From: a virus
Length of the DNA stretch: 64,000 nt
Strand: one strand, 5' to 3'
Virus record (IMG/VR): IMGVR_UViG_3300024302_000005
Coordinates: 11,503 to 75,502 of that record
Notes under the pieces: generated by a model
Seen by the model: only the letters and a program-made list of their open reading frames with translations
Databases searched by the model: none
What the model was told of the DNA's origin: nothing
Shown: piece after piece, positions 2,315-44,612 of the stretch
Numbering within the stretch: the first letter of the stretch is position 1
How the letters are laid out: each line of letters begins with the position of its first letter
Translations under genes and position numbers: made by a program

Positions 2315-2338
2315 TAAGCTAATACGGGAGAGCATTCG

Positions 2339-2557: not shown

Positions 2558-2569
2558 CAGGAGGATGTT

Positions 2570-2998: not shown

Positions 2999-3030
2999 GG
3001 CCCACTAACCCTTAAATAGGAGGACATTCG

Positions 3031-3243
3031 ATGTCCAATTACAGTCAAGCTACTGAGTCACCCGAGTACGTTACAACGGGTAACAGCACTATCCACCCTA
3101 CACCTGTATCCGATGAGGATGCAGTGAAGGTTGTTCCTAAATGGCAGTTCGACATGGGTATCCCATGGAAGGCCATGACTCCTCAGCAACAGCGTGGCCG
3201 GCGTAAAGAGATGCGTCGTAATTCGTTGAAATCCAATGGATAA
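3031..3243 (+). CDS. hypothetical protein
   Basis: AGGAGG SD. Confidence 0.6.
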   Translation: MSNYSQATESPEYVTTGNSTIHPTPVSDEDAVKVVPKWQFDMGIPWKAMTPQQQRGRRKEMRRNSLKSNG

Positions 3244-3415
3244 GACCATGTTGATGCCACTGTTAGCGCTTATGTTTGCGCTTGCAGTGGTAGGCCTCTT
3301 TGTACTCCACAATGAGACAAAGAGAATAGGCTACAACAACGGATACGCAGCATGCGAATCCAATGAGCTAAGGCATATGCCTTTAACCCTTAAACCTTAA
3401 GAATGGAGTCATTCG

Positions 3416-3685
3416 ATGGCCGTTAATCCTGAAGACCATATCACTACCGATTGGGGTACTGATCTGGGAGTTAAGACGCTGGCATTGAGCGCAATCAATG
3501 CATTAGAGGCTGCACTACCTGGAGAGCCATTCTCCAAGCAGTTCGGTTATGAGTTCAAGAAGTGGTGCACAGAACATAACGTGTTCTACTACTGCCGCTG
3601 CGGTGAAGACTTCAGCTGGATTCATGGGACTCATTTGGCCCGTGAAGCCAAGGCTGACTACGTACTCATGGAGAGTCTCTCATGA
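3416..3685 (+). CDS. hypothetical protein
   Basis: GGAG SD; ATGA coupling to the next gene. Confidence 0.6.
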   Translation: MAVNPEDHITTDWGTDLGVKTLALSAINALEAALPGEPFSKQFGYEFKKWCTEHNVFYYCRCGEDFSWIHGTHLAREAKADYVLMESLS

Positions 3686-17068: not shown

Positions 17069-17759
17069 AGAGGAATATTTGGTAGGTGTCATCAACTCCA
17101 TCGCCACCAAATACCCCGATCTAAGATATGACTCCAAAGCTCCTACCTTCGCACTGCAATATATGGGCACAGCCTTTACCCTGCATAAGCGAAGTGGCTT
17201 CCCAATGCCACAGGCTATTGCTATCGAGAATTCATTCCATGAACTGTATGCAGTTTCGGATGAATTTAACGAGCGTAATAAGCAATTTATGATCGAGCAT
17301 GGCTATATCGAGTGTGCCTTTGGCCTTAAGCTAAGAACCCCGATAATTGCAAAGTGTGTGATGGGGACGTCCAAGACACCTTACGAAGCTGACCGAGAAG
17401 TGCGCAGTGCCAACAACGCAGTAACACAGTCTTGGGGCATGCTGTTAAACCGTGCAATGATCGCCGTAAACCGACGCATCGAAGCTAGTAAATACCGGTT
17501 CGATATCTTTCCGGTCAACATGATCCATGATGCAGGATACTTCAAATTTCGTGAGGATCCTAAAGTTATCCAATTTCTGAACAACGTTCTAATCGAAGAG
17601 ATGCAATGGAACGATCACGATAAAATTAGATCAACAGAGGTCCCAATGATGGCTTCCCTTGAGATAGGGAAATCATGGGACAAACAATTCGAATTACCCA
17701 ATAACGCTAGTATCGAGGAAATCAACGATGTCATTTCAACTATCTCAGGACCAGAATGA
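17052..17759 (+). CDS. family A DNA polymerase, C-terminal part (motifs B and C)
   Basis: RYDSKAPTFALQYMG, NAVTQS, IHDA; has its own AGGAG SD. Confidence 0.92.
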   Translation: MKKITKEEYLVGVINSIATKYPDLRYDSKAPTFALQYMGTAFTLHKRSGFPMPQAIAIENSFHELYAVSDEFNERNKQFMIEHGYIECAFGLKLRTPIIAKCVMGTSKTPYEADREVRSANNAVTQSWGMLLNRAMIAVNRRIEASKYRFDIFPVNMIHDAGYFKFREDPKVIQFLNNVLIEEMQWNDHDKIRSTEVPMMASLEIGKSWDKQFELPNNASIEEINDVISTISGPE

Positions 17760-19023
17760 TGCCATTAGGGGCATCTGTGATATCTTCTTGGATATCAATC
17801 TAGAGAAACATGCTCTGGCTGTCCTAACTGGATCTGCAGGGGTAGGTAAAACTACCGTGGTAGCTGAGATAATCGAGGCACTGCGGGCTAACTCTCCCGG
17901 CTTAAATATTGAGTTGTGCGCCAGTACCCATAGGGCTGCTGGGGTACTTCAAAATATTGTTGGAGGAGAAGTATCTACTGGTCACTCCCTGTTCAAGCTA
18001 CGTCCATCTATTACCAAGTACGGCAAAGAAACTCTGAAGAGCACAGGCCCTTGTCTTATCCCAAATGGATCAGTCGTCATCATTGACGAATCTTCCATGC
18101 TTGGGAATATATGGCTAAAGGCTGTGGTGGAAACTATTAAGGATCGACATCTGAAGATCCTGTTTGTGGGAGACCCATATCAGTTGGCACCTCCTAAGGA
18201 CGTCTGTAGTATCTTCGATGGATCACTGCCTACCTTTACCCTGACCAAGGTACACCGCCAGGATATCGATAATCCTATCCTCAATAAAGCTATTGAGTAT
18301 CGTGATTTCATCCGCGGTGTTCGAGCTACAGAACCTACCCTGTCAACTGATCTAAATGAACTCGGCCAGGGTATTCAGATGCTGGAGCATGCTGACTTCG
18401 TTAGTGGGTTCGTCAAGCGGTATATTAATTACGTGGCCGGCGAAGAGGTGGATGTACCTTTATGCACATTCACTAACGAGTCTGCTATTAACTACAATAG
18501 CATGATCCGGAAGGCTGCGTACTTCCTGGGAGATACTATCCTGCCCTTCTACGAAGGAGAGCGATTGGTATCCAATGCTATTGTTAAAAACGGTGACCGT
18601 GTTGCTTTAAACAACAACGAATCGGTGACTGTTATTAGCTACTCTACTGCAGACCATAAGGGTATTCCCGGCTACAATGTGAAGGTTCAGGGATCTGCTG
18701 ATTCCTTCAACCGATCAGGGGTTAAGACAGTATTCTGCCCAGCCACTAAAGCTGCTGCAGACAAGATTTTAGATATCTGGTTGAAGGATGCTAAAAGTAC
18801 CAAGTCTTCAACGAACTGGATACAGTACTACGAGCTCAAGAATTCTCTGGCAGACCTGCGGCCGCCATTTGCCGGGACAACTCATAAGGCCCAGGGTGGC
18901 ACCTATCATGCGGTATTTATCGATAGGGTAAATATCAATAAGTGCCATGACCCAATCACTCGGGCCCGGCTAATGTATGTAGCTCTTACTCGAGCTAGCA
19001 CCAACGCATACGTCAACACTTGA
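17728..19023 (+). CDS. SF1B Dda/RecD-like DNA helicase
   Basis: GSAGVGKT, IDESSM, GDPYQL, HRQ, TTHKAQG, YVALTRA. Confidence 0.92.
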   Translation: MSFQLSQDQNDAIRGICDIFLDINLEKHALAVLTGSAGVGKTTVVAEIIEALRANSPGLNIELCASTHRAAGVLQNIVGGEVSTGHSLFKLRPSITKYGKETLKSTGPCLIPNGSVVIIDESSMLGNIWLKAVVETIKDRHLKILFVGDPYQLAPPKDVCSIFDGSLPTFTLTKVHRQDIDNPILNKAIEYRDFIRGVRATEPTLSTDLNELGQGIQMLEHADFVSGFVKRYINYVAGEEVDVPLCTFTNESAINYNSMIRKAAYFLGDTILPFYEGERLVSNAIVKNGDRVALNNNESVTVISYSTADHKGIPGYNVKVQGSADSFNRSGVKTVFCPATKAAADKILDIWLKDAKSTKSSTNWIQYYELKNSLADLRPPFAGTTHKAQGGTYHAVFIDRVNINKCHDPITRARLMYVALTRASTNAYVNT

Positions 19024-29510: not shown

Positions 29511-29680
29511 TGTGGAAAAACATTAAGTATTTCCTCTACACCCTGATTACTCTCGCCGTAGGTATCCCAGTGTTACTGGGCCTATGGTGGAGCATTCAGG
29601 TTGTTGTAGTCATCATCATCGGTGGACTAGTGTTTGTTGTTTACAAAATTTTAGATACTGAGCAAATTAAAAAGTCTTAG
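29510..29680 (+). CDS. small membrane protein (56 aa), not in the ORF track
   Basis: TAATG coupling; MWKNIKYFLYTLITLAVGIPVLLGLWWSIQVVVVIIIGGLVFVVYK...; overlaps the 3' end of the vRNAP gene. Confidence 0.6.
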   Translation: MWKNIKYFLYTLITLAVGIPVLLGLWWSIQVVVVIIIGGLVFVVYKILDTEQIKKS

Positions 29681-32600
29681 TAAACCAATCCCAGACATCT
29701 TCGACGTTAGATGGGCCAGCTATTGTAGAGGCTGAATCTAGCAGGTCACCTTGTCCCAACAATGTTGGCATGAGGTTGCCTGTTAGAGGTCCGCTAGCGT
29801 TAGCTAAGGTCTCTACATCCAGGCCATACTGCATGCCAGCTGCAACACCAATACCAGTTGGCGATCGCTGCAGCATGTTACGCACTGATCTAATATTACG
29901 AAGCTTATAGGTCAGGAATGGTGAGAAGCCCATGGAGTTTAGTACCTCCAGGATCGGGTGCATATTCTCATCAAACAGTACGAACTGATCGATAGCATCA
30001 TGCAGTGCGTCCTCAAAGGACTGCCCTTTCACATCCACTGCATGGCTAATCATTACATACCTACCCAAGAAATCAGTGATTTGCACGATTTTCTTGTGGG
30101 TACGGTAGACCTCACTATCTCTGTGCAAGACGATATTCTTCGCAATAGACGTCAGCTGACTAGGTATTTTGTCAGTATATTGTGTAACCTTATCCTGCTG
30201 CATGACACTGTTCATCCGGTTTAAATACCCCTTGGAAGATGACGTATTTACGTCCTCCACCACTAGGGAGTTAAGACCGAATGCGCTGAGCAGGTGAATA
30301 GGGTTATTATTCACTTCAGCTGTTACAGCATCATACTCAGATTGCACTTTAGGCTTCTCGAGTACCGAGGCTACTTGCAGCTTTTGATGCAGATCTCTCT
30401 GCTTCTCGGTATCTGCCTCATATCTAATATACGCTTGATACCCTTCCCGCATCTTCTTAGCAGTGTATGCTGGGGAAATTCCGCGGATGGTTAGAGCCAG
30501 CAGGTTACTGACAAAGTTGTTAATCACCACCATCAATGTGGCCATTACAACACGCTCCATACCGAAGGACATTACCTCTCGGATGCCAGCATATCCCCTC
30601 CGAATAAACGTCTTCATCCAACCTAAAGATTCATTCTGCAGGAACTCAAGGTTAGCCGGGTTCAGGGCACTATACCCAAATGTCTTATACACAATATTTT
30701 CACGCACCATGAACTTACCGTCCAGGGAGAATTTGTGCATGTACTCTCTGACCTCCCTAGGGAGCTTACGGTACTGCTCATGATACTTGGACTTAGGATC
30801 CAGGATATCCACAAACATCTTCTCATTGCCTGGATACACCTTCACCCACTCTTCGCCCAATACGTCTATAGTGGCTTTGTCTGCATCAATAGTGTTCTTC
30901 TTATTGATGTAGGAAGACCTCATGTGAGCAAACACATTCTGAAATTCCATATCAGGTTGGAAGATAGCTTCTACGCTATCTGCATTCATGATTACCCGGT
31001 AATCAACGATGTTATTCTTGCCATCCCGGATAGGGCTGAGACGTTGCTCTTCGTCTTCAATACCCATCTTCTCCAGATTTGATTCCCTCTTGTGGATCTT
31101 GGCAATGTGGGCCCGGATCGCAGATATATCTGGTGTCTTATCGGCTTTCTGGAACTTCTCATTTTTAGCTAAAATATCAGACAATAAGGTACCGCTGTGA
31201 TGCAGACCAGTTGTCGACAGGATACCCGATACGTGGCGGTTCTCAGGCATCGATCTAGACACATACATCACGTTATGGGCCTGAGGTACTCCAGGGATGT
31301 TACCCATCTTGTAAACGTGTGGGTAGCCCTTCCTGGCCATGGCTTTACGTTCCTCTGGAGTATCTACTCCAGTGATCATGTCGGTCAGGTCATCAATACG
31401 ATCTACAGTGAAACCCTTCTGGGTCTGGATACCGTTACCGTCAAATAGATTATCTAAAGACATAGCTACGAATGCCCTGTGCCTATTCAGCATAAACTCA
31501 AAGGCGTTGGTATCCGGATCAGCTTCGAGCTCTCTGGCCATCATATCTTTGACCACTGCATTATCTTCGCTCTTCTGACTAAGCAATGCAGACAGTGTAG
31601 CAATGGCATCCATTCTGCGGATGGTATTTGCGTTTAAGGCATCACCAGTAAGATACGTGGCCGCTATTGTGGATACGTTAAAATGCCCTTGTGGACGTTT
31701 ACGCTTCTTGGTAGCCAAGAAATACCCCAACTCCATGGTGTATTTGAATGCCATAGATGTAGATTTAAGATTAGATGCTTTAGCTAATTTCTTGATCTCT
31801 TGCTTAATTAGAGCAGGATTGCCGATCAGCTTAACGATTTGCTGTGGTGTCATGCCTACGTCGTCAGCCAGTAGGCTCTGCAGATCAGTCTTCAATACCA
31901 CGCGGGTAATAGCTTCACGAGCTTGTTTGCTGATCTCTTCCGAGTTAACAGATTTCCATGCAGCATTCATGGTGCGCACGGAATCTCGCTCCACTTGTTG
32001 GAATAGCTTGTTAATATTCACCTTGGCAAACAGCAACCGCTTAATAAGCTTGAGCGTAAGAGCTCCTTTGCCTACTTCATCAGCCAATGCTTTAGTGAGA
32101 CCGGTGATCTGACTGTACCCAGCAGTCACCATGGCGTCCCTAGCTGCACCTTCACCGAGAGCAGCGACACCAATAGCAGCAGCTGATCGGGAAACCTTAC
32201 CCAGTGCGTTATTAGGAGAAGCCTTAATAGCTTTGTGCACTGCAGCAGAGATGAACTCTCTGATCATCTTATCAGAGCCACGTACCAGATCTCTTGTCTT
32301 GGTCTCTAGCTTACTGGCTTGGGAATCATGCCTAGTCTGGATATCAATGAGAGATACCAAAATAGCTAGCGATTCCTCATGCGCATTCTCTTTGTTCTTA
32401 CGAAAGATTACTCGAGTAAACGAATCTACTATTAGATCAATCAGGTGGACAAACCGGCCAGCTAAGGTCGTACCGCGGTCAGGCAATACCGTTGTGAAGC
32501 TTTGAGTGATCCGGATCATCGCAGGATTAGTAGTGGCATACGCCAAGAATTCTTCAGGGAGATGAGCAGCATCTGGACCAAATACATAATTGTATTGATC

Positions 32601-35600
32601 CTTAGCTAGCTTGATCTCACTCGGAGTAGCAGTACCTGGGATATGGCTGAGGAAGGCTTTAAATCCTCCCTGCTTATCGACAAGCTTCTTGGTCTGCTTA
32701 CGCACCTCACGGATCTGGTCACCTATCAGAGGGTTATCCCGAATAGCCTGAACAGTCATGGCATGCAGCAGTTCATGCGCATACACCTCCTGAGGAGAGT
32801 ATTCGTTACGATTACCAGGCAACTGCCTGCTCAGAGATACCGTCATACGCTTGTTAACGCTATCGTAGGCACCTTGAGTAACCCCATTGATCTGTTCCAC
32901 CGTCATACGGACAGCACCTATGGAGTCCAATCCTCGGCCCATTGTGTCGATAATACGCTGTAGTGTAGCAGAGTGAGAGTCCATCTCTTGCTGGGTACCG
33001 TAATAATGGCGAGAGATGTTCTTAAAGCGAGAGAGCAGAGCAGTGACACTAGCCTTCGTAATATCCTTGGAGAACACCGTCTTCTCATCGCTTTTCTCTT
33101 GGTTACCCAGAGAATTATACGCCTCTACCACAGCCTTTATGTCAGCATCGATAGTAGCTTGGGTCTCTCCAAGATCTACCGTTACCTCGTACTTACGTAG
33201 CTCAGCTTCCATCTTGGCAATGTTGCCATCATAGGCTGCTCCAACTTTGGCACGATAACCTTCCAAAATAGTGGTGTTATTCGTGGTATCCCCAGTCAGC
33301 AGACTAATAATTATTTCTCTTACATTAATCCGATCTTCCGTAGGGAACATCTCTTTGAGGGTCTCGGTCATTCCGCCGATGTACGGGTTATTTATGCTGT
33401 CTGCCAAAGCTATATTCACAAAATCACGAGCTGTTTCAGCAGTGTACTGAGCTAATATATTAGCTACTTCGTGAGGAGAATTGTTTCTGAACATCCCAGT
33501 AATGTAGTTACGCACGGAATCTGCAAGCCTAGCTACTGCAGGGTGGATCAGGAACATGGCCATCTTGTGAGCAGTACCAGCTGCCTGGATCTCTGCTACA
33601 GCAGAGTCCATGGACTTACCAGCTTCAGGGTTAGTCTCGGACATATTAGGAATATACATCTGACTGGGCTCTAGACCCTCTGTAGATTCGATTTCTCTTA
33701 GCTCATCCTTCTTCTGAGTGGCTTCATTAGCATGTGAGATAACTACCTGCCGCAGCTCTGCAACATCTTTTTTATCTGTTCCTTCTAAAAACCGGTTAAC
33801 GTGCGCAGTGTCACGGATCCAGTTTTCTACCTCTGTCATCAAGGCAGTCCCGTTATCCGCATCCAACTGCTCAGTTGCAATAAGGACCTTCTCCATCTGA
33901 TCTTTCATGATCAGAGACAAGTTCACATCAGGAGAGAGACCTAACCGCTTAAACTCTGCATTATATATTTCAGCAAATTCTGCTAATAGCTCAGGACGAC
34001 CAAATGCTGCATCGTACAGTGGCAGAAGGTGAGGTACTTTATCTAATGACAGAGCCAGCAAGGCAGCATCCGTATTGATAATACCTCGGATCAGCGCGCT
34101 AACTCCAGGTGCACTAAACGTCTGTTGCCGGGCAGTAGCCGTGACATCTCGGGTACCTCCGTCAACGTGATCTTGCACACGAACACTTACGGTATGAGCG
34201 TTGCTATCAGACTTATCCGATACCCGTTTACTCATATCAATAAATGAGTCTACGCCTGCGTCAGACAATGGGCCCTTATATTGTGGCAGCCACTTCTTCA
34301 GCCCATCCTGAACTAGAGCAACCGTCTCAGATTCAGTAAGGCTAGATCGTTTTTCATCAGCTAGTTTTTTATCCCTAGCTGCAATGAAATGTGCCATGAA
34401 TACGGCATGCATGATCTCACCGGCTTGAACCACAGCCATCCGGTAATCCTTGGTATCTCCAAGGAGAGCATCCAATCCTCGAGCTAATCTAGGCTCAATG
34501 ATTTGCTTGATTACATTCTGGAAGATCTCTTCGTTAAACTCATGCCCCTTATGCATGTTGTTCTTGATCTTGTTGCCTACATTGTTGCCCATACCCAGGA
34601 CATCCAACTGGCGTTCAAACTCTTCAATCTGCTTAGCACCCTCTACTTTGTCAGCAATATAGAGCCTACGCAGTACACCAATCTCTTGGTATAGATGAGA
34701 GATAATAGTTTTGGCCACCCCAGTAGCTACGGCAGGATTGCCGGCACCATACTGAGACATGACGAAAGGATACTTAGCTAGATCTCGTGCATCCTGATCA
34801 GCTAGGTCAGGGAACAGGTAAGCAAGAGCCTGTGACCGTGCTACGTACGTCTCAGACAGCTTATCCAACCAATCCTGATCTTTGCCCTTCTCTTCTTCAT
34901 GGTACGTAAGGGCTACGTCCATTCCGGAATAGTGCTGAATTAGTGCACCCAGATCCATATAGGTATCGACAGGGATCTTGTCCCCATCATCCCTATCCTT
35001 ATTAAGGGCGTGGATACCCCCCTCAAGGTGGGTGGTTTCCTCAGGTGTTTTACCAATATACACCGCAGTCTGGTTAAGGTGCTTCTCCAGAGTTTCCCGA
35101 TCATTAAATGTAGGGAACTGGAATATGTTGATAGCAAACCCGTTAGCTACACCATCAATCTCCGCAGGGATATCAGACTCGAAGTTCATCTTGGGAGCTT
35201 CTGGGGCTACGGGAATAGCTTCACCGGTAGCCTTGGCGGTTTCTACTGCAACAGCATGCTTATCCATCGCCGTCATATGCGCCTTCCAGGCAGCATGGTA
35301 AGGAGCGTATATGGATAGGGCATGCAGGCCACCCAGGAGAGAGATATCAGCTCCTGAATATGGGCTATTTTCTTTGGTGTACAGTTTCAGAACTACAGCA
35401 TTAAATTTCTCCATGTCCACTTTAGACATGTTGGAGTCAGCTGCCCTAAGAAGAGCTATGGCTTCCTGGATATCAGCATCTTCCATGTACTCATTGAAGG
35501 TGCTTACGATATTCACCGGTACCCGCTTATCTACTTTGTAGCCTAGGGCGTACATCGCAGCGAACTGGAACAGGTGCAGGTTCTCTTTGGTAAATGTGGT

Positions 35601-38600
35601 CGTCCCCTGTGGAGCAACGGCCCACCGCGTAAAGTGACTGTTCTGTGGGTTTACACCCAGACCAACCTGCATAATACGATGCTGAGACTGCAGGGCGTAT
35701 TTGAAGAAGAAGTTCTTCAGTTTGCCTGCCGTGCTAAATTTAAGAACACTATCCAGTGCATCTGTCTTACTGCCATTAGAGGCATTGGCCGAAGTAACAT
35801 ACGCCTTGGTGTCTGTTTTCTCATCTACGGGAACAACCCCCATCAGGAGTTCTACGGTACCCCGGAAATCTTCAGACATTGCAGCTATTAACGGCAACGT
35901 AGAGGTTTCACCCCAGACTACATTCTGCAGTTTCTCTAGCACTTCACGCATCTTCTTTGGAACATCACCAAAGGATCTGCGGATGCTGCTAGCCGTAAAC
36001 TTTGCAGGAGCCTGCAAAGGAGCTGAATTAGAGTCGTTCTCTGCACCATCAGTCAGCACACTAATTGCTGCATTATTTAGTTCAGTGCTTTTCTCGAGCT
36101 CCTCTACGGAACCCTGCTCAACAGCGTGAGTAATATGTTTGTATTGCTGTCCGTGAGTAAAGTTCCTGCCATCACCTTCTTCGGATTCAGCAACTTCTTT
36201 AGCTTGTTGGGGCGTATACCCAAAATCCCATTTGCCGACGTTAACATTAATGAATGCTACGGTACTGCCAGGAACCTGTGCTTCGTTATTTATGATCTCA
36301 AAGGCCATGGATCCCAGGGCAGTACCTAAAGAATCCACGTAAGCAGCAGTGTATTTACTGCTAGCTGAAATACCCAGGGATGCCAGGATGACATTAGCTA
36401 CAGACTGCACAGCTTGTTTGTGATCTAGGCCGACCCCTTCGAGGGCATTATAGTCAGTTGCAGATAGTGCCCTACGCCGATCGCCGTACAGGAACTCCCC
36501 TTTTTCTTGGTCTGAAGATAGCGGATTATCATTAGTATTTTGAGCAATCCAGTTCTGAGCACCCATCATCAAGGCAAACACCACCTGAGGGGGCAGCACG
36601 GCTTCCCCTGTGAGCACTGTCTTACCGTCTTCGACTTTGGTAGAGAACTGCTCAAGGAGCCTCAGAGGGGTCTTCAGGGCAGGGGCAAAGCCATTACCTG
36701 CTATGTAATCGTCAGAAGTAACCAGATTAGCGTAGGCAGCAGCGTAAGCAGTATACCGGTTAGCGTACAGCTCAGCGCCTTCATCACTTAGCCCGATAGC
36801 CCGCAAGGCATCCATCAGTGTCTGAGGACTGTTGAAAGCCTCTGACGGGATGTTAAACAGCCCTACCCGCTTCTTGGTAATTTTTACCAGTTCAGCGAAG
36901 GTTTTATTCTTGAGGGTAATACCTGATTTGGTAGAACCCATGATCTGCTGATTAACGAATTCGGATACGAAGCTTACCGTAGCATCCAATACAGGCAAGG
37001 TTTCGGTCAGGATGAGTTTCTTAAACTCACCTGCCTTCTTGCCTACCTTAGTACCCGCCTTTTTAATGGGGGTGCTGAAAGTCTCGTTAGCTTGCCCGGT
37101 CTCTACCAGCAGCATACCACTGGCTTCGAACACCTGACCTAACAAGGTATTGTCTGTTTTAGCTAGACCTAACAATTTAGAGACACTGGCAACCAACTGA
37201 GACCAGATAGAGCCCTTGGGCTTAGCTGCATTAGGTAGATCGATTGCCTTCATATCCATCAGCAGACGCTGAAGATGCTTGTTGGTCAGGCCGTACGTCA
37301 TTAACTCGTCAGCATGCTTAATTGTAGTGAGCCTATTAAGCATGCTTTTATCATAGTCAGAAACATTATTAGCAGGATCCGCAACATACTCTTTGATGTG
37401 CGCAGCAATGGCTTCTAGTTGAGCTACAGCATCTCGTTGAGTTTGACTGTTAGGGGATTTGAATGCACTAACGGCTGCCACATGCAGTAGTTCATGCAGA
37501 GTAAGCTCTTCATTTAAGGCACCGGGACTAAGCGTAACTAGCTTAGCAACTACTTCTCCGGTTCCCTCTATAAGATCGTAGTCAACATACCCGTCAAATT
37601 CTTCATCTTCTCGCTGTACTCGCACACCTGTGTATTGAACCTTTACAGCACCTACTTTACCAACCAAGGCTTTAGCGAGCTCTACATAGGCGGGGTTAGT
37701 AGCTGTATCAATAAGCTGCTGAAGCAAGACATTCGCTGTTGTGCCCTTCTTGATTAGGGCAATTACTTTGTCCGTTAAACTAGCGGAGTCATAGTCCTTC
37801 TGGCGTTGGGTTAGCTCGGTAGTGCTGGCAGCAGTAACCGTGCCTTCAGGAGCACTTTCCACCTTCTCTGTGGTGTCTGCACCGACATTGGTATTCTGTG
37901 AGCTAAAGTTAATGGAGTCCGCGGACACTTCAGTAGAGCCGGCATTCCTATTAGCAGAATGCATAACCAACTTATCCGTAGGACGGCTGGTAGCCACATA
38001 GAGTGCCTGATAGCTATTCTTGGGAGAACCATTGGTCCACCCGCCAATGCTATTCAGGCCATCCTCCATAACATACACATTACGGTACGTAGAGCCTTGG
38101 GCCTTCCAGGCAGTGATCGCGTATGCAGGATGCATCTCGATATTAGCTATGCGAGATACAGCGACATTCTGCTCTTTGAACTTGGTGTACTGCTCTGCAT
38201 TTAGACGTTTTTTAGCCTTAGCGTATTCAGCTGAAATAGCCTCTTGCAACGTCTTTCCATCAGGGAAAGTATCCGTATCAGTTACAGCAGGAATTCGTGT
38301 TTTTATTTCCTCGCCGTTAATAAGGTCCCTCATCAGGACCTCTTGATACGGAATAGATACCCCTTCAAATTCCAGGTGCTCCACCTCACCTACTTCAAGG
38401 ATTTCATATTCACTACTATTCCAGATAGCTGCATCGCCCTCATCCTTGGGCTGCAACTTCACAGTGGAATAGGACATCAACACATCACCTACAGCATGGA
38501 TGCCGTAGACACGGGTATCGCCAAACAACCGCTCAAAGATATCTCTGTTCAGATTAAAGACAGAGGCACCTTGGTTCCGATTATTCTCATTAAATGCCGT

Positions 38601-41600
38601 AACGATCCGAGTGCTTAATGGGTTCAGCAAGTAATCTTTAACGAAGGAGGTAGCTACGAATTCAGCGTCTCCGGTAAATATGACACCAGAGTTAGTAGAT
38701 TCTGAGAAATTAGTCTTCCGGTCACCTTTAGTGATCAGAACCGCTTTCTCTTTGATCTTCTCTTGCAGCGTCTTAACATCATCCAAGACAGCAGTGAACA
38801 ACCCAGTAAGCCCTAAGATAGGAGACTTACCAATTTGCCGCTGAGGCTTGAGTAACTTGACCCGGTTAGGGTATTCAGCTTCATCGAAGACAGGGCTATT
38901 AGAGTTACGGCCGAACAGGGCACTAGCAGCAACCTTGAGAGCTTCTTTAGCTGAACGAATAGGTGCCAGCTGTGCAGAATCACCGAGGAAGAGTACTTTT
39001 ATACCACGTTCCGCGGCTTTCTCTTTAATCAGCTGGGTCATGTTCTCACCCAGCATCGATGCTTCATCGACAACCAGTAATTTAATGCCCTCTAGCTTAT
39101 CACCATCCAGATCTTCAATATCCTCTAGACCCTCTTTCCTCTGTTTTTCATCAGTAGGAATGAGACCTAAAGCAGTCCAGATAGTACTGGCTTCCTCGCC
39201 GGTAGCCTTAGCTAGGATAGCTTTAGCTTTATTAGTGGTGGCTGTGTACAGAATTTGTTTCTTGGTCAAGCCAGAGTTTTCGATGATCTTGCTAACAACA
39301 GTGGTTTTACCAGTGCCACCACGACCTTCAAGAACAAATTCCCTAATAGCTGATCCGGTATCTTTCAGCCAATCACCAATCTTGTCGATCGCTACCCGCT
39401 GTTCAGCGTTAGCGTATCCACCAGGAACCACCTCATATTTAGGCTCTTTGATGACTGTGTCATCTTCAGCTACCGTATCTTCTTCTGTCTCCGATACCTC
39501 CCCAGCAGGGACGTCCTCTGTTTCGGCTGCCTCAACATCTGGAGACTCTTCTGTGTTGTCCGGAGTTCCGTCCTGGTCCGCAGCATCATCTCCCGCATCA
39601 ATATTAGCCGGTGGAGCGTCTGGGGGAGGTGGGTTCTGCTCAGATACCCCTTCTTGTTCAGAAGATGTATCGCCAGCTGTGCTGCTAGCTGTATCAGGTG
39701 CAGCCTCAGCTGAGACGGTTTCCGTGCCTTCAAGATCGTTAATTGCATCTACGTCCTCTTCGGTAATATCTTCAGCTGTTCTGTTTTCTTCCTGTGCGTT
39801 TAATTCCTCTACGGCAGCAGCTAATGCCACTGCTTCTCGCGTAGCAGCAGCAGCAGTCTGAGCGAAGGTGGTGTCCTTGTGGCCCATGGCCAGCTTGAAC
39901 ATAGCTTCACCGTAATCAGCTTCCTTGCTGACGGTACCAATGAACTCACCAGAGTTCTGGTGGATCTCGTATACATATTCTTTATTGTCTCGAGCTATTT
40001 TGAATGACTCTGCGGTCATCTCAGTATCTTGGGTGTACTCCATTACCCGGTTACCGCCAGCAGCGACATTACCTCTTACGTATACCGGTTTCCCTGTCTT
40101 AGCTTCCTTCTTGGCAGCAGCCACAAAAGCATTATGCTTACGACGAATATTACCAGAGTGCACAGACATACGCTGAAGAGAAGTCTTCATGGCCAGTACT
40201 GCAGGAGCATTACCTGGATCAGCTAGTAGTGTCTTTGCCGCGGTATTGATCTCGTCGAAATACGTGTTGAAACCTTTCCAACGGGTAGAGGTACCATCGA
40301 TGCTCTCTTGGTGTACGTCTTCAGAGCTCTTACCGGCTTTAGTTAATACAGCCTTCTCTATTTCAGTTAGCTCTTTACCCAGTTTCTGGGTAATTTTCAG
40401 GTTCTCTACCTGGGCTTTATCTGCTTTGGTCTTGGCTTCTTTATCAGCTTTTTCAATAACAGCAGGAGCTACATCCTCCCCAGATATGACATTACGGAAA
40501 GTACCATCTTCTTTTTCCGCAGCAGCCGCTTCCTGTTCCTCAGCCTCTTTAGTAGCTACAGCAAGTGTAGCCAGGAATTCAGTTTTCTTAGCTTCTTTAC
40601 GGGCAATTTGTGCCTCTGTCAAAGCTCTCTTACCTACCCGTTGTAGAGTAGCTAAAGACTCTTTAAGAGTCTCCGGATTGTCAGTTATGGTGTCGAGGGC
40701 AGCATCTAATTCAGTATCGGTAATCTCCGATACGGCCAGTGCTTCCTCAGCCGCAGTCTTAGCAGCTTCAGCTGCTTTAGTCTCCGCTACCTCGGGGCGT
40801 ACCCGTTCAGGCAAAGCGTCATATTCTGCTTGTACAGCTGCACGGTCCTCTGCGGTGAACTCTGGATTCTCAGCAGTTAGCTGCTCCAGTAGATCAGCAC
40901 GTTCAGCCAGAATAACCTCTTTATTGGGGTGATTAGGCGTATCTTTGAGGATTTGCTCGATCACATCAACACGTTCATTAATGGCATCACCCGCAGGTGT
41001 ACCTTGAACAGTTTCTGATTGAGCTAATTGCTCACGCAATCCTGCAGCTCTGGATTTAGCAGTAGCTGCTTTAATAGGAGTTACGACAGCTGCTTTGGTT
41101 ACTCCAATAGTTGCTCGTGCAGCCACCATGGCGCTTACACCACCAGGAGTACCTAGAGCTTCTGCCAAGGCATCATGAGCAATTGCACCGGTATCTGTGA
41201 TCTTACCAGCTTGAGCTAGCTGTTCGGCCGTAGCAGTAATACCACCAGATACACCCTCACCAACCAGCGCTAGTGTTGGGCGCACTATGGTTAGATTAGC
41301 TATAGAAGCTGGTAGAGATTTATTTACAGCTCTAACTGTTTTCTGTACCCAATTAAGGCGAGCTATTGGGATGGCTTTAAGTGCAGCCATATCACCAAAT
41401 TTCTCAGCCACTGTGGCTACAGCAGACCATGCTTTAATTCGGCCAAGTTCTTTAGCTGAAGGCTCTCTGTTATTAGTAGTCCTGAATTCCTCTATAGCTT
41501 GGTTACCTTTACCAACAGCAAGTGACGTCAGAATAGCTGACTGCGCAATTGGACCACCAACAGTGAAGGCAATCATGTAGGGAACGCTGTCTATACCAGA

Positions 41601-42413
41601 TTCCAAGAATGTACCTAGATCGTTAGTGACAGCGTTCCATGCTGCAGCCCAATTACCGTCGTTCTTAGCGATAACTTCAAATGCCTTTTGTGCTGTTAAT
41701 TGATCAGCACGGTTAACAGGGACATGTTTCTTTACACCCTTACCGAAGGCTTCAATGGCATCAAATTGAGCTTTATTTGTTGTAGCTTGTTTGTCGAGCT
41801 CAGCAATTCTTTTATGTTTGCTGGTAGCCCGGAAAGTATCATCAGACTCCGTACGTTCAACGTCTTGACCTAAAGTACGATAAGTCTCCAACTCCTGAGG
41901 AGTAACCACTTCATCCAGGCGGTTAAACCGCTTGGCACGTTGGTTGTGGAGATCTACTTCATTATTGAGAGTAGTGTTACCTGTGAAGGCAGAAGCGCCC
42001 TGAACTCCCAGGTCTACGGCCGTACTGGCTATGCCATGTACCCGGTTGCCTGCATTGCCAATAGGAGCAAAGTCCTCGATAGCCTGATTCTCTTGGGCAT
42101 CCCGGATGGCGTATGTTTTAGCTGTTAGTTCATCAAGTCCGCGGACTACGTTACCTGCAGTATTCTTGACCGAATAGGTACCGTCTTGGTGCTTGGTTAC
42201 ATTACCTTGCCGATTTACAACAGGAGAAGCAGGTTCATCTGTGTAGATGTTTTGATTATTAATTCCTTGGATTACATCATTTACGGAATCATCAGCAGCT
42301 AGTTCCATATGCATACCCACTAAGCTCCCTTGCTTAGCAGACTGTATTGCTGATTTTGCAGAACGTACTCGTTGGGCTATCGATTGTTTAGCGGCAGAGA
42401 CAGGACCAGCCAT
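29667..42413 (-). CDS. virion-encapsidated RNA polymerase (N4 gp50-like) with an embedded SF1B helicase and two HExxH domains
   Basis: 4248 aa with no Cys seen; EIDGVANG (motif A), RDLAKYPFVMSQYG (motif B), LYDA (motif C); conserved position in the late block. Confidence 0.92.
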   Translation of the reverse strand: MAGPVSAAKQSIAQRVRSAKSAIQSAKQGSLVGMHMELAADDSVNDVIQGINNQNIYTDEPASPVVNRQGNVTKHQDGTYSVKNTAGNVVRGLDELTAKTYAIRDAQENQAIEDFAPIGNAGNRVHGIASTAVDLGVQGASAFTGNTTLNNEVDLHNQRAKRFNRLDEVVTPQELETYRTLGQDVERTESDDTFRATSKHKRIAELDKQATTNKAQFDAIEAFGKGVKKHVPVNRADQLTAQKAFEVIAKNDGNWAAAWNAVTNDLGTFLESGIDSVPYMIAFTVGGPIAQSAILTSLAVGKGNQAIEEFRTTNNREPSAKELGRIKAWSAVATVAEKFGDMAALKAIPIARLNWVQKTVRAVNKSLPASIANLTIVRPTLALVGEGVSGGITATAEQLAQAGKITDTGAIAHDALAEALGTPGGVSAMVAARATIGVTKAAVVTPIKAATAKSRAAGLREQLAQSETVQGTPAGDAINERVDVIEQILKDTPNHPNKEVILAERADLLEQLTAENPEFTAEDRAAVQAEYDALPERVRPEVAETKAAEAAKTAAEEALAVSEITDTELDAALDTITDNPETLKESLATLQRVGKRALTEAQIARKEAKKTEFLATLAVATKEAEEQEAAAAEKEDGTFRNVISGEDVAPAVIEKADKEAKTKADKAQVENLKITQKLGKELTEIEKAVLTKAGKSSEDVHQESIDGTSTRWKGFNTYFDEINTAAKTLLADPGNAPAVLAMKTSLQRMSVHSGNIRRKHNAFVAAAKKEAKTGKPVYVRGNVAAGGNRVMEYTQDTEMTAESFKIARDNKEYVYEIHQNSGEFIGTVSKEADYGEAMFKLAMGHKDTTFAQTAAAATREAVALAAAVEELNAQEENRTAEDITEEDVDAINDLEGTETVSAEAAPDTASSTAGDTSSEQEGVSEQNPPPPDAPPANIDAGDDAADQDGTPDNTEESPDVEAAETEDVPAGEVSETEEDTVAEDDTVIKEPKYEVVPGGYANAEQRVAIDKIGDWLKDTGSAIREFVLEGRGGTGKTTVVSKIIENSGLTKKQILYTATTNKAKAILAKATGEEASTIWTALGLIPTDEKQRKEGLEDIEDLDGDKLEGIKLLVVDEASMLGENMTQLIKEKAAERGIKVLFLGDSAQLAPIRSAKEALKVAASALFGRNSNSPVFDEAEYPNRVKLLKPQRQIGKSPILGLTGLFTAVLDDVKTLQEKIKEKAVLITKGDRKTNFSESTNSGVIFTGDAEFVATSFVKDYLLNPLSTRIVTAFNENNRNQGASVFNLNRDIFERLFGDTRVYGIHAVGDVLMSYSTVKLQPKDEGDAAIWNSSEYEILEVGEVEHLEFEGVSIPYQEVLMRDLINGEEIKTRIPAVTDTDTFPDGKTLQEAISAEYAKAKKRLNAEQYTKFKEQNVAVSRIANIEMHPAYAITAWKAQGSTYRNVYVMEDGLNSIGGWTNGSPKNSYQALYVATSRPTDKLVMHSANRNAGSTEVSADSINFSSQNTNVGADTTEKVESAPEGTVTAASTTELTQRQKDYDSASLTDKVIALIKKGTTANVLLQQLIDTATNPAYVELAKALVGKVGAVKVQYTGVRVQREDEEFDGYVDYDLIEGTGEVVAKLVTLSPGALNEELTLHELLHVAAVSAFKSPNSQTQRDAVAQLEAIAAHIKEYVADPANNVSDYDKSMLNRLTTIKHADELMTYGLTNKHLQRLLMDMKAIDLPNAAKPKGSIWSQLVASVSKLLGLAKTDNTLLGQVFEASGMLLVETGQANETFSTPIKKAGTKVGKKAGEFKKLILTETLPVLDATVSFVSEFVNQQIMGSTKSGITLKNKTFAELVKITKKRVGLFNIPSEAFNSPQTLMDALRAIGLSDEGAELYANRYTAYAAAYANLVTSDDYIAGNGFAPALKTPLRLLEQFSTKVEDGKTVLTGEAVLPPQVVFALMMGAQNWIAQNTNDNPLSSDQEKGEFLYGDRRRALSATDYNALEGVGLDHKQAVQSVANVILASLGISASSKYTAAYVDSLGTALGSMAFEIINNEAQVPGSTVAFINVNVGKWDFGYTPQQAKEVAESEEGDGRNFTHGQQYKHITHAVEQGSVEELEKSTELNNAAISVLTDGAENDSNSAPLQAPAKFTASSIRRSFGDVPKKMREVLEKLQNVVWGETSTLPLIAAMSEDFRGTVELLMGVVPVDEKTDTKAYVTSANASNGSKTDALDSVLKFSTAGKLKNFFFKYALQSQHRIMQVGLGVNPQNSHFTRWAVAPQGTTTFTKENLHLFQFAAMYALGYKVDKRVPVNIVSTFNEYMEDADIQEAIALLRAADSNMSKVDMEKFNAVVLKLYTKENSPYSGADISLLGGLHALSIYAPYHAAWKAHMTAMDKHAVAVETAKATGEAIPVAPEAPKMNFESDIPAEIDGVANGFAINIFQFPTFNDRETLEKHLNQTAVYIGKTPEETTHLEGGIHALNKDRDDGDKIPVDTYMDLGALIQHYSGMDVALTYHEEEKGKDQDWLDKLSETYVARSQALAYLFPDLADQDARDLAKYPFVMSQYGAGNPAVATGVAKTIISHLYQEIGVLRRLYIADKVEGAKQIEEFERQLDVLGMGNNVGNKIKNNMHKGHEFNEEIFQNVIKQIIEPRLARGLDALLGDTKDYRMAVVQAGEIMHAVFMAHFIAARDKKLADEKRSSLTESETVALVQDGLKKWLPQYKGPLSDAGVDSFIDMSKRVSDKSDSNAHTVSVRVQDHVDGGTRDVTATARQQTFSAPGVSALIRGIINTDAALLALSLDKVPHLLPLYDAAFGRPELLAEFAEIYNAEFKRLGLSPDVNLSLIMKDQMEKVLIATEQLDADNGTALMTEVENWIRDTAHVNRFLEGTDKKDVAELRQVVISHANEATQKKDELREIESTEGLEPSQMYIPNMSETNPEAGKSMDSAVAEIQAAGTAHKMAMFLIHPAVARLADSVRNYITGMFRNNSPHEVANILAQYTAETARDFVNIALADSINNPYIGGMTETLKEMFPTEDRINVREIIISLLTGDTTNNTTILEGYRAKVGAAYDGNIAKMEAELRKYEVTVDLGETQATIDADIKAVVEAYNSLGNQEKSDEKTVFSKDITKASVTALLSRFKNISRHYYGTQQEMDSHSATLQRIIDTMGRGLDSIGAVRMTVEQINGVTQGAYDSVNKRMTVSLSRQLPGNRNEYSPQEVYAHELLHAMTVQAIRDNPLIGDQIREVRKQTKKLVDKQGGFKAFLSHIPGTATPSEIKLAKDQYNYVFGPDAAHLPEEFLAYATTNPAMIRITQSFTTVLPDRGTTLAGRFVHLIDLIVDSFTRVIFRKNKENAHEESLAILVSLIDIQTRHDSQASKLETKTRDLVRGSDKMIREFISAAVHKAIKASPNNALGKVSRSAAAIGVAALGEGAARDAMVTAGYSQITGLTKALADEVGKGALTLKLIKRLLFAKVNINKLFQQVERDSVRTMNAAWKSVNSEEISKQAREAITRVVLKTDLQSLLADDVGMTPQQIVKLIGNPALIKQEIKKLAKASNLKSTSMAFKYTMELGYFLATKKRKRPQGHFNVSTIAATYLTGDALNANTIRRMDAIATLSALLSQKSEDNAVVKDMMARELEADPDTNAFEFMLNRHRAFVAMSLDNLFDGNGIQTQKGFTVDRIDDLTDMITGVDTPEERKAMARKGYPHVYKMGNIPGVPQAHNVMYVSRSMPENRHVSGILSTTGLHHSGTLLSDILAKNEKFQKADKTPDISAIRAHIAKIHKRESNLEKMGIEDEEQRLSPIRDGKNNIVDYRVIMNADSVEAIFQPDMEFQNVFAHMRSSYINKKNTIDADKATIDVLGEEWVKVYPGNEKMFVDILDPKSKYHEQYRKLPREVREYMHKFSLDGKFMVRENIVYKTFGYSALNPANLEFLQNESLGWMKTFIRRGYAGIREVMSFGMERVVMATLMVVINNFVSNLLALTIRGISPAYTAKKMREGYQAYIRYEADTEKQRDLHQKLQVASVLEKPKVQSEYDAVTAEVNNNPIHLLSAFGLNSLVVEDVNTSSSKGYLNRMNSVMQQDKVTQYTDKIPSQLTSIAKNIVLHRDSEVYRTHKKIVQITDFLGRYVMISHAVDVKGQSFEDALHDAIDQFVLFDENMHPILEVLNSMGFSPFLTYKLRNIRSVRNMLQRSPTGIGVAAGMQYGLDVETLANASGPLTGNLMPTLLGQGDLLDSASTIAGPSNVEDVWDWFTKTF

Positions 42414-42434: not shown

Positions 42435-44126
42435 TTAAGGGTTCAGTAGTTTTTGCAGTGCCGTGTTAGACAATACTTTATTTTGCATTGCCGCTGGAAG
42501 TTGGTCCATAAGAGCTTGTAATAGTACGTCTTTACTAAGACCGGAAACATCTCCCTTATGTAGACCACCAGAGTCCCCATACCCAGGAAGATACAAATCA
42601 TTTCGATCTATGGTATCGCTGTCTCCAATGGTGTTATTCAGGACCTTTACTACGGCTACACTAATTGCAGTGGAGGAGATACCCGCTTTGCTTAACAAAT
42701 TCTGTGCTTTAGCCATTACGTTTTTAATGACCCTACGTGTTTTAGCACCATCAACAGTGGCTTCACCTGTAGAGGTAAAGCGTTGATTCAATGAGTCTGC
42801 AAGCTCTCCGTAGGAGCCTGTACGTAGTTTGCTGGCAAAGCCCAGTTCGACTTTGGTAGCACCAAGGTTAGCTTCAACAGCTGCTTCATTTAGATCCTTT
42901 ACCTGCTTATCTTTGGCGTCTACCTGGGCAAGGAAAGAGCTAACATTTGGATCAGATTTAATATGTTGTTTAGCTATCTGGGCAAGATGGCGTTCTGATA
43001 GCCCCTTGTTCTCGGGTTTACCACGAAGACCAGATACAATCTTGGATTCTAACGTAGCACGTAAATTCTTAGGAGCAGCCAAGATAGCTGCAGACATTCT
43101 ACCAGTAGTATAGGCAGCCAGTACACCTTGAGTTACTACACCTCCAAGGGCATTTCGTGCACTAGAAAATGTCTGGATCTGAGCCCCTCCCGGAACTGTC
43201 GCAAGTATTGCTGCACCCGTCTGGGAGCTAAGAGAATCTTTAGTAGCCCGAGCAATTCGGGCAGTCATATCTGCAGACAGCTCTCTGGTACTCTGCATTT
43301 CTTCCAGTTTACCCAAGGCAGCATTACGCTCGGCCGTAGTCTTACCAGGATCCGCAAGGGTATCCAGGAGAGGCTGAGCCTTGGTGTCATTGGTAAAGAC
43401 TGTTTTTTGTTTAGCTAAATCACGAAGACTTTTTGCACGGGTTTCTTCCGTAAGGGTAGCGTCATCCCGAATACGTTTTTGCTCTTGGTTAAAAGCAATA
43501 CGGGCCCGAAAGTCTTTAGCAGCATTTATTTGAGATGTAATCTCATCACGTTCGTTCTTGTCTCTGGCAAATTCCAGAGAATCTTCCAGTTGCCGTAACC
43601 GCTTGGGATCTGCTTTTTCGTTAAATTCAATTTCTTGTTTGGTCTTTTTACGAGCAAGTTCAGCAGTATTCCGCTGGGATTCTGCTGTTAACCGTTGGGA
43701 TGCAGAGGTTAGCAGGTCATCTGCTTTACCAGCTTCATCACTTTCAAAGGATGCTTGATCACGCACTTCTTGACGATCTAACCGAAGGTTCTGGTCGACA
43801 GCACGTTGTTCATCAGCTACCCGGAAATCCTGATTCTGTAGATCTGTGACAGCAGAGGTAACTGCACTATCATCCATGAAGGCTCGTGTAGCTTCATCAG
43901 CTTGCTGAACTGCATTCTTGCGGTCAGCATCTGTAGGCAAAGACTGCAAATAGGATACAAACTCTGCAGTATCCCGTTTGGTCTTCTCATCGCTGAAGTC
44001 CTGTACTTCATCACCAAGCCCACTAATAGCGTCTCCAAGACCTTTGCCCGCATCACTGAAGGCCCTGAGAGATGCACCATGATTAGGACCAGACACATTT
44101 CTCCAGGTAATAGGCGTTGCCATCAA
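42435..44126 (-). CDS. virion/ejection protein (N4 gp51-like)
   Basis: PITWRNV N-terminus; no Cys seen; conserved gene order. Confidence 0.75.
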   Translation of the reverse strand: MMATPITWRNVSGPNHGASLRAFSDAGKGLGDAISGLGDEVQDFSDEKTKRDTAEFVSYLQSLPTDADRKNAVQQADEATRAFMDDSAVTSAVTDLQNQDFRVADEQRAVDQNLRLDRQEVRDQASFESDEAGKADDLLTSASQRLTAESQRNTAELARKKTKQEIEFNEKADPKRLRQLEDSLEFARDKNERDEITSQINAAKDFRARIAFNQEQKRIRDDATLTEETRAKSLRDLAKQKTVFTNDTKAQPLLDTLADPGKTTAERNAALGKLEEMQSTRELSADMTARIARATKDSLSSQTGAAILATVPGGAQIQTFSSARNALGGVVTQGVLAAYTTGRMSAAILAAPKNLRATLESKIVSGLRGKPENKGLSERHLAQIAKQHIKSDPNVSSFLAQVDAKDKQVKDLNEAAVEANLGATKVELGFASKLRTGSYGELADSLNQRFTSTGEATVDGAKTRRVIKNVMAKAQNLLSKAGISSTAISVAVVKVLNNTIGDSDTIDRNDLYLPGYGDSGGLHKGDVSGLSKDVLLQALMDQLPAAMQNKVLSNTALQKLLNP

Positions 44127-44138: not shown

Positions 44139-44612
44139 TTAACCGCCAACGAGCTGAAGGTGGCTGATATCTGTATTGGCTTGAGTACCTTGAATGTACC
44201 GTTGACGTGCACGAATTTGGTTATTAATGGTGGTTTCCTGGTTAGCCAGGTTGGCATCAGCAATTCTGCTCTCTTGAGCAAAGGCTTTCTTGGCAAGACC
44301 TAAGGACTTAATAGATGCCCAACCTTGAGCTAATCGACCAAGTCCACCGAGGACACTACCTGCAGCGCCAAGGGTACCTTGGTTAAATCCGAATCCTTGT
44401 TTCTGACTATTAAAGTCAGGAATATTTGCTTTATTCAATCGAACCCGATCAGCAATTACTCTATTTTGCTCGCTTAGATCATTAGCTTGGGCAGTAACAC
44501 CAAGCGGGACTTGAAGTCCCTGTATAGATCCATACCCACCTTGCCCAAAGTTATTAACGTCCTCATCAATATCTTCAAACTGACCGGTCTGAGCATTATA
44601 CTTACGTACCAT
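44139..44612 (-). CDS. small virion protein (N4 gp52-like)
   Basis: Gly-rich segment then LAKKAF...N..NQ...IN; conserved gene order. Confidence 0.75.
   Translation of the reverse strand: MVRKYNAQTGQFEDIDEDVNNFGQGGYGSIQGLQVPLGVTAQANDLSEQNRVIADRVRLNKANIPDFNSQKQGFGFNQGTLGAAGSVLGGLGRLAQGWASIKSLGLAKKAFAQESRIADANLANQETTINNQIRARQRYIQGTQANTDISHLQLVGG

Follow-up and report, generated by a model that had tools for sequence, protein, structure and literature searches.

In a 64-kb stretch (the window) of a 75.5-kb IMG/VR virus record, IMGVR_UViG_3300024302_000005, which was judged complete and comes from seawater metagenomes, a single gene encodes a 4248-amino-acid (aa) protein that is, by profile comparison, an N4-type virion RNA polymerase (vRNAP; gp50 family) and that contains a real, complete SF1B helicase. 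The helicase is part of a cassette of ~800 aa which sits inside the flexible linker that joins the N-terminal domain (NTD) to the RNA polymerase (RNAP) core. Based on homology and on its composition free of cysteine (Cys), we infer that this protein is packaged in the virion and injected, and that a DNA-unwinding motor is probably delivered together with the phage DNA before any phage gene is expressed. The parts of the gene are listed below, with domain borders outside the helicase being approximate; P0242 is the closest full-length relative and CTD stands for C-terminal domain.

29667..42413, minus strand: vRNAP gene, 4248 aa, no internal stop, no Cys
39837..42413, minus strand: NTD, aa 1 to ~859, sharing 42% identity with the P0242 NTD and corresponding to the membrane-binding NTD of N4 gp50 (role from PMC13434306)
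39447..39836, minus strand: acidic low-complexity linker, aa ~860-989, net charge -41, its position corresponding to the N4 gp50 linker 907-1006
37944..39446, minus strand: SF1B (Dda/RecD2-like) helicase, aa 990-1490, from hidden Markov model (HMM), PHROG and structure model
37779..37943, minus strand: S/T/N-rich linker, aa ~1491-1545, directly after the helicase
37254..37736, minus strand: second, putatively zincin-like (HExxH) domain, aa ~1560-1720, HELLH at aa 1640 (37482-37496), part of the cassette
33414..36806, minus strand: RNA polymerase core, ~aa 1870-3000, from invariant motifs A/B/C and the mini-vRNAP profile match, borders estimated from N4 spacing
29670..33413, minus strand: CTD, ~aa 3001-4248, HELLH at aa 3213 (32763-32777), PHROG 2206

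The helicase domain contains the SF1B motifs Q, I, Ia, II, III, IV, V and VI in order and with intact catalytic residues, and every motif quoted in a preliminary description of this DNA was found at its place.

aa 1003, minus strand: motif Q region, AEQRVAI (sequence)
39303..39326, minus strand: Walker A, GRGGTGKT, aa 1030 (K1036), invariant in three alignments
aa 1058, minus strand: motif Ia region, ATTNKA (sequence)
39054..39071, minus strand: Walker B or motif II, VDEASM, aa 1115 (D1116, E1117; sequence and alignment)
38967..38984, minus strand: motif III, GDSAQL, aa 1144 (sequence and alignment)
aa 1191, minus strand: motif IV region, QRQ (sequence)
38085..38105, minus strand: motif V, KAQGSTY, aa 1437 (sequence and alignment)
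37983..38000, minus strand: motif VI, YVATSR, aa 1472 (R1477; sequence and alignment)

The Pfam profiles AAA_30 (8e-20), AAA_19 (3e-17) and PIF1 (7e-07) matched aa 989-1490, an envelope that agrees to within ~15 nt with the span of 37960-39440 described previously, and PHROG 325 ('Dda-like helicase') matched the domain at 6e-60; this level of agreement greatly exceeds chance. An AlphaFold model based on a 35-sequence alignment (predicted local distance difference test, pLDDT, 87.3; predicted template modelling score, pTM, 0.88) showed the SF1 fold, with two RecA-like domains, a strand-rich and helical region at the 2B position, and a beta-hairpin at the pin position. The best Foldseek match of this model was T4 Dda (3upu_A, 3e-25, TM 0.78 on the target), followed by RecD2 (5e-19), RecD (3e-18) and Pif1 (3e-15). 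Considering its family membership, the embedded helicase is predicted to translocate 5'->3' on single-stranded DNA (ssDNA), driven by ATP. A separate helicase product made from an internal start was considered and rejected, as the stretch from the linker to M1120 contains no Met.

In the alignment of five fused homologues no ATPase or helicase motif residue varies, and the helicase is their most conserved segment, with a mean pairwise identity of 0.46-0.56 vs 0.2-0.4 elsewhere, the polymerase core included. This invariance and top conservation argue for an active enzyme, and point to strong purifying selection on the embedded helicase. Overall, we consider it highly probable that the anatomy given here is correct and that the helicase is active.

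The assignment of the surrounding protein to the N4-type vRNAPs relied on profile searches. The 4248-aa open reading frame (ORF) matched PHROG 2206 at 6e-176, with the best stretch at aa 3147-3914, and a profile made of the window protein and four homologues matched the N4 vRNAP structure 9pnr (2e-87) and the mini-vRNAP 3c2p (4e-33) in the PDB. The profile was needed for the latter result, as a single-sequence phmmer search with the whole protein against the PDB matched Dda and RecD2 but missed the N4 vRNAP. The residues of the T7-type RNAP motif A (D2420), motif B (R2543, K2547, Y2555, G2556) and motif C (D2801) are invariant in the five homologues, as are those of the HExxH motif of the CTD (H3213, E3214, H3217). 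The identity to the vRNAPs of cultured Schitoviridae is only ~22-24%. In cryo-EM, N4 gp50 has been seen as beads on a string, composed of a membrane-binding NTD (1-906), a low-complexity linker (907-1006), the RNAP (1007-2101), a short linker (2102-2123), and an autoinhibitory CTD (2124-3500) (PMC13434306, PMC13492108). The acidic linker with its net charge of -41 and the profile match to the N4 vRNAP bear out the earlier placement of the helicase after an acidic linker and before the polymerase core of an N4-type vRNAP. The statement that the N4 vRNAP itself is devoid of both Cys and a helicase was also confirmed, gp50 having no Cys in 3500 aa and no helicase HMM match.

A chimeric assembly at the domain borders would undermine these observations and is conceivable in principle for the window itself; otherwise, we found no support for an artefact. 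Both borders are crossed by contigs of other seawater runs, including RNA libraries from 2025, with no joints and no loose ends, and the exact 4248-aa protein is recorded on 6 + 5 contigs. The same architecture was also found on independent contigs (P0003-6, P0018, L005-7, P0274), and homologues that share it are 38-63% identical in the helicase. The alternative that the domain is a decayed helicase kept as filler is opposed by its invariant catalytic motifs and by its position as the best-conserved part of the protein. We therefore regard an artefact or a dead domain as extremely improbable and as effectively refuted. In the 2025 seawater metatranscriptome libraries, contigs 99-100% identical to positions 37400-39900 of the window were seen. 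They do not show that this stretch is transcribed, but indicate that the phage, or its DNA, was present again ~seven years after the metagenomes of 2018.

The comparison with P0242 delimits the cassette. This relative is 42% (NTD), 40% (polymerase) and 52% (CTD) identical to the window protein and lacks the helicase, and the two proteins are colinear except for aa ~983-1806, where P0242 has one long acidic, S/T-rich linker. The colinearity together with the missing segment indicates that the inserted cassette consists of the helicase, a linker and the second HExxH domain, which P0242 lacks as well. This second HExxH region aligns weakly with the HELLH region of the CTD (E 0.001). Zincin-like HExxH domains are a hallmark of N4-like RNAPs and of other polyvalent proteins, and a self-processing role has been proposed for them (PMC5512222); the second HExxH domain may be a self-processing site that releases the NTD with the helicase.

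The origin of the embedded helicase was examined by comparing it with the only other SF1B match in the genome, a free-standing gene.

17728..19023, plus strand: free-standing replicative Dda-like helicase, 431 aa, 7 Cys, PHROG 325, orthologue of N4 gp37

The two helicases are ~25% identical (36% over the first RecA domain). In maximum-likelihood trees from 'quick' searches, with SH-aLRT as the only support measure, the free helicase clusters with its free-standing counterpart in L003, joined in a larger tree by N4 gp37. One clade (100 SH-aLRT) unites the embedded domains of the window, L005, P0003/P0004, L003, P0005 and P0006; it is separate from the free or gp37-type helicases (98-99 SH-aLRT) and is nested in a larger well-supported clade in which most helicases are part of giant or mid-sized proteins. 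The phylogeny that had been proposed as a check thus places the two helicases of this phage in separate well-supported clades, and the embedded domain as a duplicate of the replicative helicase was rejected.

Among other vRNAPs the site of the helicase varies. It lies between the RNAP and the CTD (group B) in P0030, P0031, P0040, P0252, P0301 and the fragments P0146 and P0276, which fall in other branches of the larger clade, and N-terminal of the polymerase in P0018 and P0274. A single clade of the twelve vRNAP-embedded helicases, a group named after the first tree had been seen, was rejected by the approximately unbiased (AU) test (p 0.0002), and with it a single origin of all of them. Judging from these trees, vRNAPs have captured a helicase at least twice, once in the NTD-RNAP linker and once in the RNAP-CTD linker. 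The helicase and the rest of the protein also differ in their histories. P0003 and P0004 are 53-56% identical to the window protein in the helicase and only 22-23% in the polymerase and 22% in the CTD, while L003 is 46% identical in the helicase, 40% in the polymerase and 51% in the CTD, and the helicase-less P0242 has nearly the same values as L003 for the last two. This conflict between the helicase tree and the polymerase/CTD relationships implies that vRNAP genes acquire and lose the module, which passes from one to another, and these phylogenetic data identify the helicase as a mobile accessory cassette common to vRNAPs and other giant phage proteins.

In L003 (IMGVR_UViG_3300004460_000078, L003:9983-23453) the vRNAP is split into a protein of 1700 aa (NTD and helicase) and one of 2747 aa (SLOG/DUF2493 by precomputed Pfam, polymerase and CTD). 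The two ORFs are ~125 nt apart and in different frames, and the sole Cys of each lies at most 10 residues from the break. The 1700-aa protein occurs with the same length on three contigs, which indicates that the split is real.

An exhaustive HMM search over 1.84 billion cluster representatives retrieved 183 proteins at E <= 1e-30. Among the best 150 of these, 53 had at least 2300 aa (median Cys content 0.04%), 44 had 900-2299 aa (0.11%), and 40 were shorter than 650 aa (0.42%). Searches of named records gave little: a megablast of the whole vRNAP gene against phage records yielded no match, a tblastn search of 50,697 phage records gave only matches below 60% identity (among the matches listed mostly annotated helicase genes and no vRNAP gene), and none of the fused vRNAPs has an NCBI or UniRef name. 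In IMG/VR, a single-protein scan with the helicase domain found nothing, an alignment-based helicase scan found only L003 and one free helicase, and a scan with P0242 found L003 again.

The absence of Cys from the domain and from the whole protein, noted in the preliminary description, was confirmed (0 in 4248 aa, whereas the free helicase has 7). The absence of Cys from vRNAPs and its rationale, the passage via the tail and the oxidising periplasm, have already been published (PMC3821669). Among 24 vRNAP homologues examined, Cys numbered 0-1 each. Helicase domains with no Cys at all made up 9/9 of those in vRNAPs, 23/28 of those in other giant proteins and 3/42 of the free-standing ones, counts that are not phylogenetically independent; the free helicase gp37 of N4 has 6 Cys. 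The embedded helicase, by these counts, follows the no-Cys rule of the N4 ejection proteins. The lack of Cys had previously been taken as a sign of long-term adaptation to injection rather than of a recent insertion. The first part of this claim stands insofar as the module fits the constraint on ejected proteins, embedded domains being Cys-free as a rule. The second part does not, as the helicase is no long-term resident of this polymerase lineage, considering the helicase-less P0242 and the tree conflict. With these two observations, and with a clade that already resides in giant Cys-poor proteins, the helicase looks like an already Cys-free cassette moving between ejected proteins.

Several relatives combine the helicase with further domains. 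An AlkB-like 2OG-Fe(II) oxygenase lies directly N-terminal of the helicase, between it and the RNAP, in P0031 (aa 2468-2611) and P0252 (aa 2654-2795), NADAR is paired with the helicase in P0011/15/19/22, and SLOG accompanies helicase-bearing relatives in P0006 (aa 846-928, a circularly permuted YpsA SLOG just before the helicase) and in ORF2 of L003. Fusions of SLOG to phage SF1 helicases have been read as conflict-related (PMC9503650). The giant helicase protein P0007 matches a PHROG family of the type 'virion structural protein'. Helicase-bearing vRNAPs may also start with an SLT or lysozyme-type transglycosylase, as in P0004 (aa 9-110), P0003 (aa 33-186) and P0040 (aa 122-300). A group of ~80 near-identical clusters (P0033-P0111 and P0164) comprises proteins of ~6100 aa in which DUF7831, DUF1848 and NADAR come after the helicase. 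In contrast to the vRNAP group, these proteins have ~24 Cys; their contigs are ~100 kb, and some contigs that hold the same proteins are labelled human gut (e.g. L010-L071), where the matches themselves are ~470 aa and may lie in the giant ORFs or in free helicase genes.

The gene order of the genome is that of coliphage N4, with small early genes, an RNAP II homologue, a replication block (helicase, DNA polymerase), and then, on the minus strand, the vRNAP and genes of the size of gp51, gp52 and gp53. The RNAP II-like ORF (8960-10705, plus strand) is single, codes for 581 aa and matches PHROG 2051 (2e-99) and PHROG 2166 (1e-44); the RNAP II of N4 is a heterodimer from two genes. The genes in the position of the N4 ejection proteins gp51 and gp52, which are likewise Cys-free in N4, were assigned by synteny and Cys counts, the HMM matches being weak.

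42435..44126, minus strand: Cys-free gene in the N4 gp51/gp52 ejection-protein position
44139..44612, minus strand: Cys-free gene in the N4 gp51/gp52 ejection-protein position

Positions ~1-1870 of the window (genome 11.5-13.3 kb) contain no long ORF and form a strand-switch point, which probably lies near the true genome ends. Three candidate promoters were found in this region.

885-902, plus strand: candidate vRNAP hairpin promoter, (A)CCTGC-TATC-GCAGG(T), upstream of early genes
1186-1199, plus strand: candidate vRNAP hairpin promoter, CTTGC-TATC-GCAAG, upstream of early genes
1751-1764, plus strand: candidate vRNAP hairpin promoter, CCCGC-TATC-GCGGG, upstream of early genes

The three hairpins share a fixed GC-TATC-GC core, with compensating changes in the outer part of stems of 5-6 bp and with T-N-AGG directly after each, and their loop has 4 nt vs 3 nt in N4. 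The core occurs 6 times in the window vs 1.6 expected. It was not found in the sequence parts of relatives, which probably exclude the early regions, and this result therefore says nothing.

As for function, our first choice, which we hold tentatively and somewhat short of even confidence, is that the helicase supplies the vRNAP with single-stranded template and with accessible hairpin promoters. The N4 vRNAP shows no activity on double-stranded DNA (dsDNA) and requires hairpin extrusion driven by gyrase as well as EcoSSB (PMC13492108; PMC13434306), and our first choice links the helicase to this need for a single-stranded template; the co-varying hairpins upstream of the early genes fit it. 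Being a further 'bead' of the vRNAP, the helicase would be packaged with it, leave the virion with it and refold in the cytoplasm, with the NTD tethering it near the membrane channel. Host ATP would then drive its 5'->3' movement on the non-template strand of the DNA as this enters. SF1B helicases move 5'->3' and the vRNAP reads its template 3'->5', so that, from the mechanisms of SF1B helicases and T7-like RNAPs, the two motors would be co-directional and could run together, like RecB and RecD in RecBCD. The unwinding would free the template strand, thus exposing hairpin promoters and an ssDNA template with less reliance on host gyrase and single-stranded DNA-binding protein (SSB); the helicase may also help to reel in the leading part of the genome, and the neighbouring HExxH domain may cleave the module off. 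The earlier suggestion that this protein could melt its own promoters or pull the genome into the cell without gyrase and SSB is seen as plausible.

The helicase lies to the cytoplasmic side of the NTD that anchors the protein at the membrane, at joints of the beads-on-a-string chain known to be flexible, which speaks for promoter presentation, and the AlkB-like domain of group B, from a family that repairs single-stranded nucleic acid, is consistent with an early machine centred on single strands. A number of observations weigh against it. P0242 and several other relatives, P0245-P0251 among them, do without the helicase, which is thus dispensable for vRNAP function. The position of the helicase relative to the polymerase varies, with a separate NTD-helicase protein in one case and a location between RNAP and CTD in others, and members of its clade are also found in giant proteins where no N4-type RNAP was detectable, so that no fixed geometry with the polymerase is required. 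SF1B helicases also depend on a 5' single-stranded site for loading and leave closed duplex DNA unopened. The ends of the N4 genome carry 3' extensions (PMC3821669). Moreover, the NADAR, SLOG and AlkB-like partners in relatives fit counter-defence at least as well. On that explanation, a rival to be taken seriously, if less likely than the promoter role, the vRNAP would be the delivery vehicle, following polyvalent-protein logic, of an effector for counter-defence or genome care, and the helicase would strip host proteins (restriction or CRISPR complexes, nucleoid proteins, RecBCD-type enzymes) or expose strands for partners that reverse host base modifications. A patchy distribution, at least two captures and incongruent histories of helicase and polymerase are typical of arms-race accessory modules, and the clade prefers giant Cys-depleted proteins (53 of the best 150 with at least 2300 aa), P0007 with its match to a virion structural family among the giants. 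The direct pairing with AlkB-like, NADAR and SLOG domains adds to this, as does a polyvalent-protein framework that includes packaged helicases such as P1 DarB (PMC5512222). However, a Pfam scan detected no NADAR, AlkB or SLOG partner in the window protein, no defence target can be named, and it would be unusual for a fast-evolving conflict effector to be so highly conserved, more so than the polymerase. The association with a polymerase that needs a single-stranded template would also be left unexplained. Both explanations could be unified, as a possibility, if the helicase made single strands for the vRNAP and the partner enzymes protected the exposed strands.

We regard it as improbable that the helicase is a genome-entry motor only, anchored by the NTD at the inner-membrane end of the ejectosome and pulling one strand in with no direct role at promoters. 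In the split gene it stays with the membrane-binding NTD and not with the polymerase, and in other giant proteins it is usually C-terminal, and so would be next to the DNA during ejection. DNA entry in N4 requires an energy-consuming process, with transcription-coupled injection (PMC13492108). Nevertheless, the group B helicase is far from the NTD, relatives with no helicase must also import their DNA, and SF1B enzymes, which move on single strands, would unwind rather than import duplex DNA. More improbable still is a helper of early replication or recombination, which would prime origin unwinding or recombination-dependent replication at a time when the phage has yet to make a helicase of its own. 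Dda has the most similar fold, and Dda-type helicases assist T4 origin unwinding and strand exchange, but both this phage and L003 also encode a distinct replicative helicase that belongs to the N4 gp37 clade. Further, an N4 virion holds only 4 +/- 1 copies of the vRNAP (PMC13434306), and N4-like replication comes after early and middle transcription. On a broader scale, co-injected SF1B helicases might represent a widespread, unrecognised phage strategy, in which a Cys-free cassette in ejected giant proteins acts on the incoming genome before gene expression and in which the N4-type vRNAP, as a self-sufficient helicase-polymerase, replaces the need for gyrase and SSB; we offer this as a speculation that is more doubtful than the promoter role itself.

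The relevance of this architecture follows from what is known of the N4-type vRNAPs, the textbook case of a polymerase that is unable to use duplex DNA and is reliant on host gyrase and SSB. There is still debate on the origin of the first transcripts on DNA that has just been injected and is topologically unconstrained, and a role for the ~two-thirds of the vRNAP beyond the polymerase core is only beginning to emerge. A vRNAP that naturally contains a highly conserved, presumably 5'->3' helicase offers an experimental handle, in which one Walker A mutation separates the polymerase from unwinding, and nature provides controls: a close relative with no helicase, a relative whose NTD and helicase are split off, and a lineage in which the helicase lies on the opposite side of the polymerase. 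In addition, a two-RecA-domain motor of ~55 kDa would have to pass through an ejection channel of ~30-35 A and refold, which bears on models of protein translocation.

Compared with N4 gp50, the window protein is likewise a giant single-chain T7-like RNAP with no Cys and with the order NTD, low-complexity linker, RNAP and CTD, the CTD again containing HExxH, with neighbouring Cys-free genes similar to gp51 and gp52, and with candidate hairpin promoters. It differs in sequence (~22-24% identity) and by the ~800-aa cassette in the NTD-RNAP linker, N4 having no helicase. With T4 Dda, Deinococcus RecD2 and Pif1 the embedded domain shares the motif set and the predicted fold, but it is only ~18-20% identical to them, ~60 aa longer than Dda, Cys-free, and located inside a predicted ejected virion protein. 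The gp37-type helicase of the same phage (17728..19023) belongs to the same superfamily and to PHROG 325, and differs by its low identity (~25%), its 7 Cys and its other clade. A parallel is the F-plasmid TraI, in which RecD-like SF1B helicase domains are transported with DNA into the recipient through a narrow secretion channel, the difference being that this is conjugation, with a relaxase covalently linked to ssDNA and no polymerase. P1 DarB is also a helicase-family ATPase that is packaged in the head, injected, and acts on DNA before gene expression (PMC5512222), but it is an SF2 dsDNA translocase, coupled to a methylase, with an anti-restriction role and no link to a polymerase.

The closest concept is that of the polyvalent proteins (Iyer et al. 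2017, PMC5512222), in which several unrelated enzyme domains are joined in one polypeptide encoded among virion genes. The window protein, with a helicase, an RNAP and two HExxH regions, is of this kind, and its relatives also carry SLT lysozyme, SLOG and AlkB-like domains. Among the architectures listed is that of an N4-like RNAP with a zincin-like metallopeptidase and with lysozyme, ART and PBECR1 as variable partners (PMC5512222). The helicases described there are, in contrast, of the SF2 SWI2/SNF2 (DarB) type, with rare UvrD-like ones in actinomycete plasmids, and include neither SF1B nor a helicase-vRNAP fusion (PMC5512222); we found no description of such a fusion in the literature searched or in the INPHARED phage records. 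By its sequence, the fusion thus appears as a member of both the N4 vRNAP family and the SF1B helicases that fits the polyvalent concept, the combination being new there, and that extends the catalogue of polyvalent injected phage proteins by the class of SF1B helicases.

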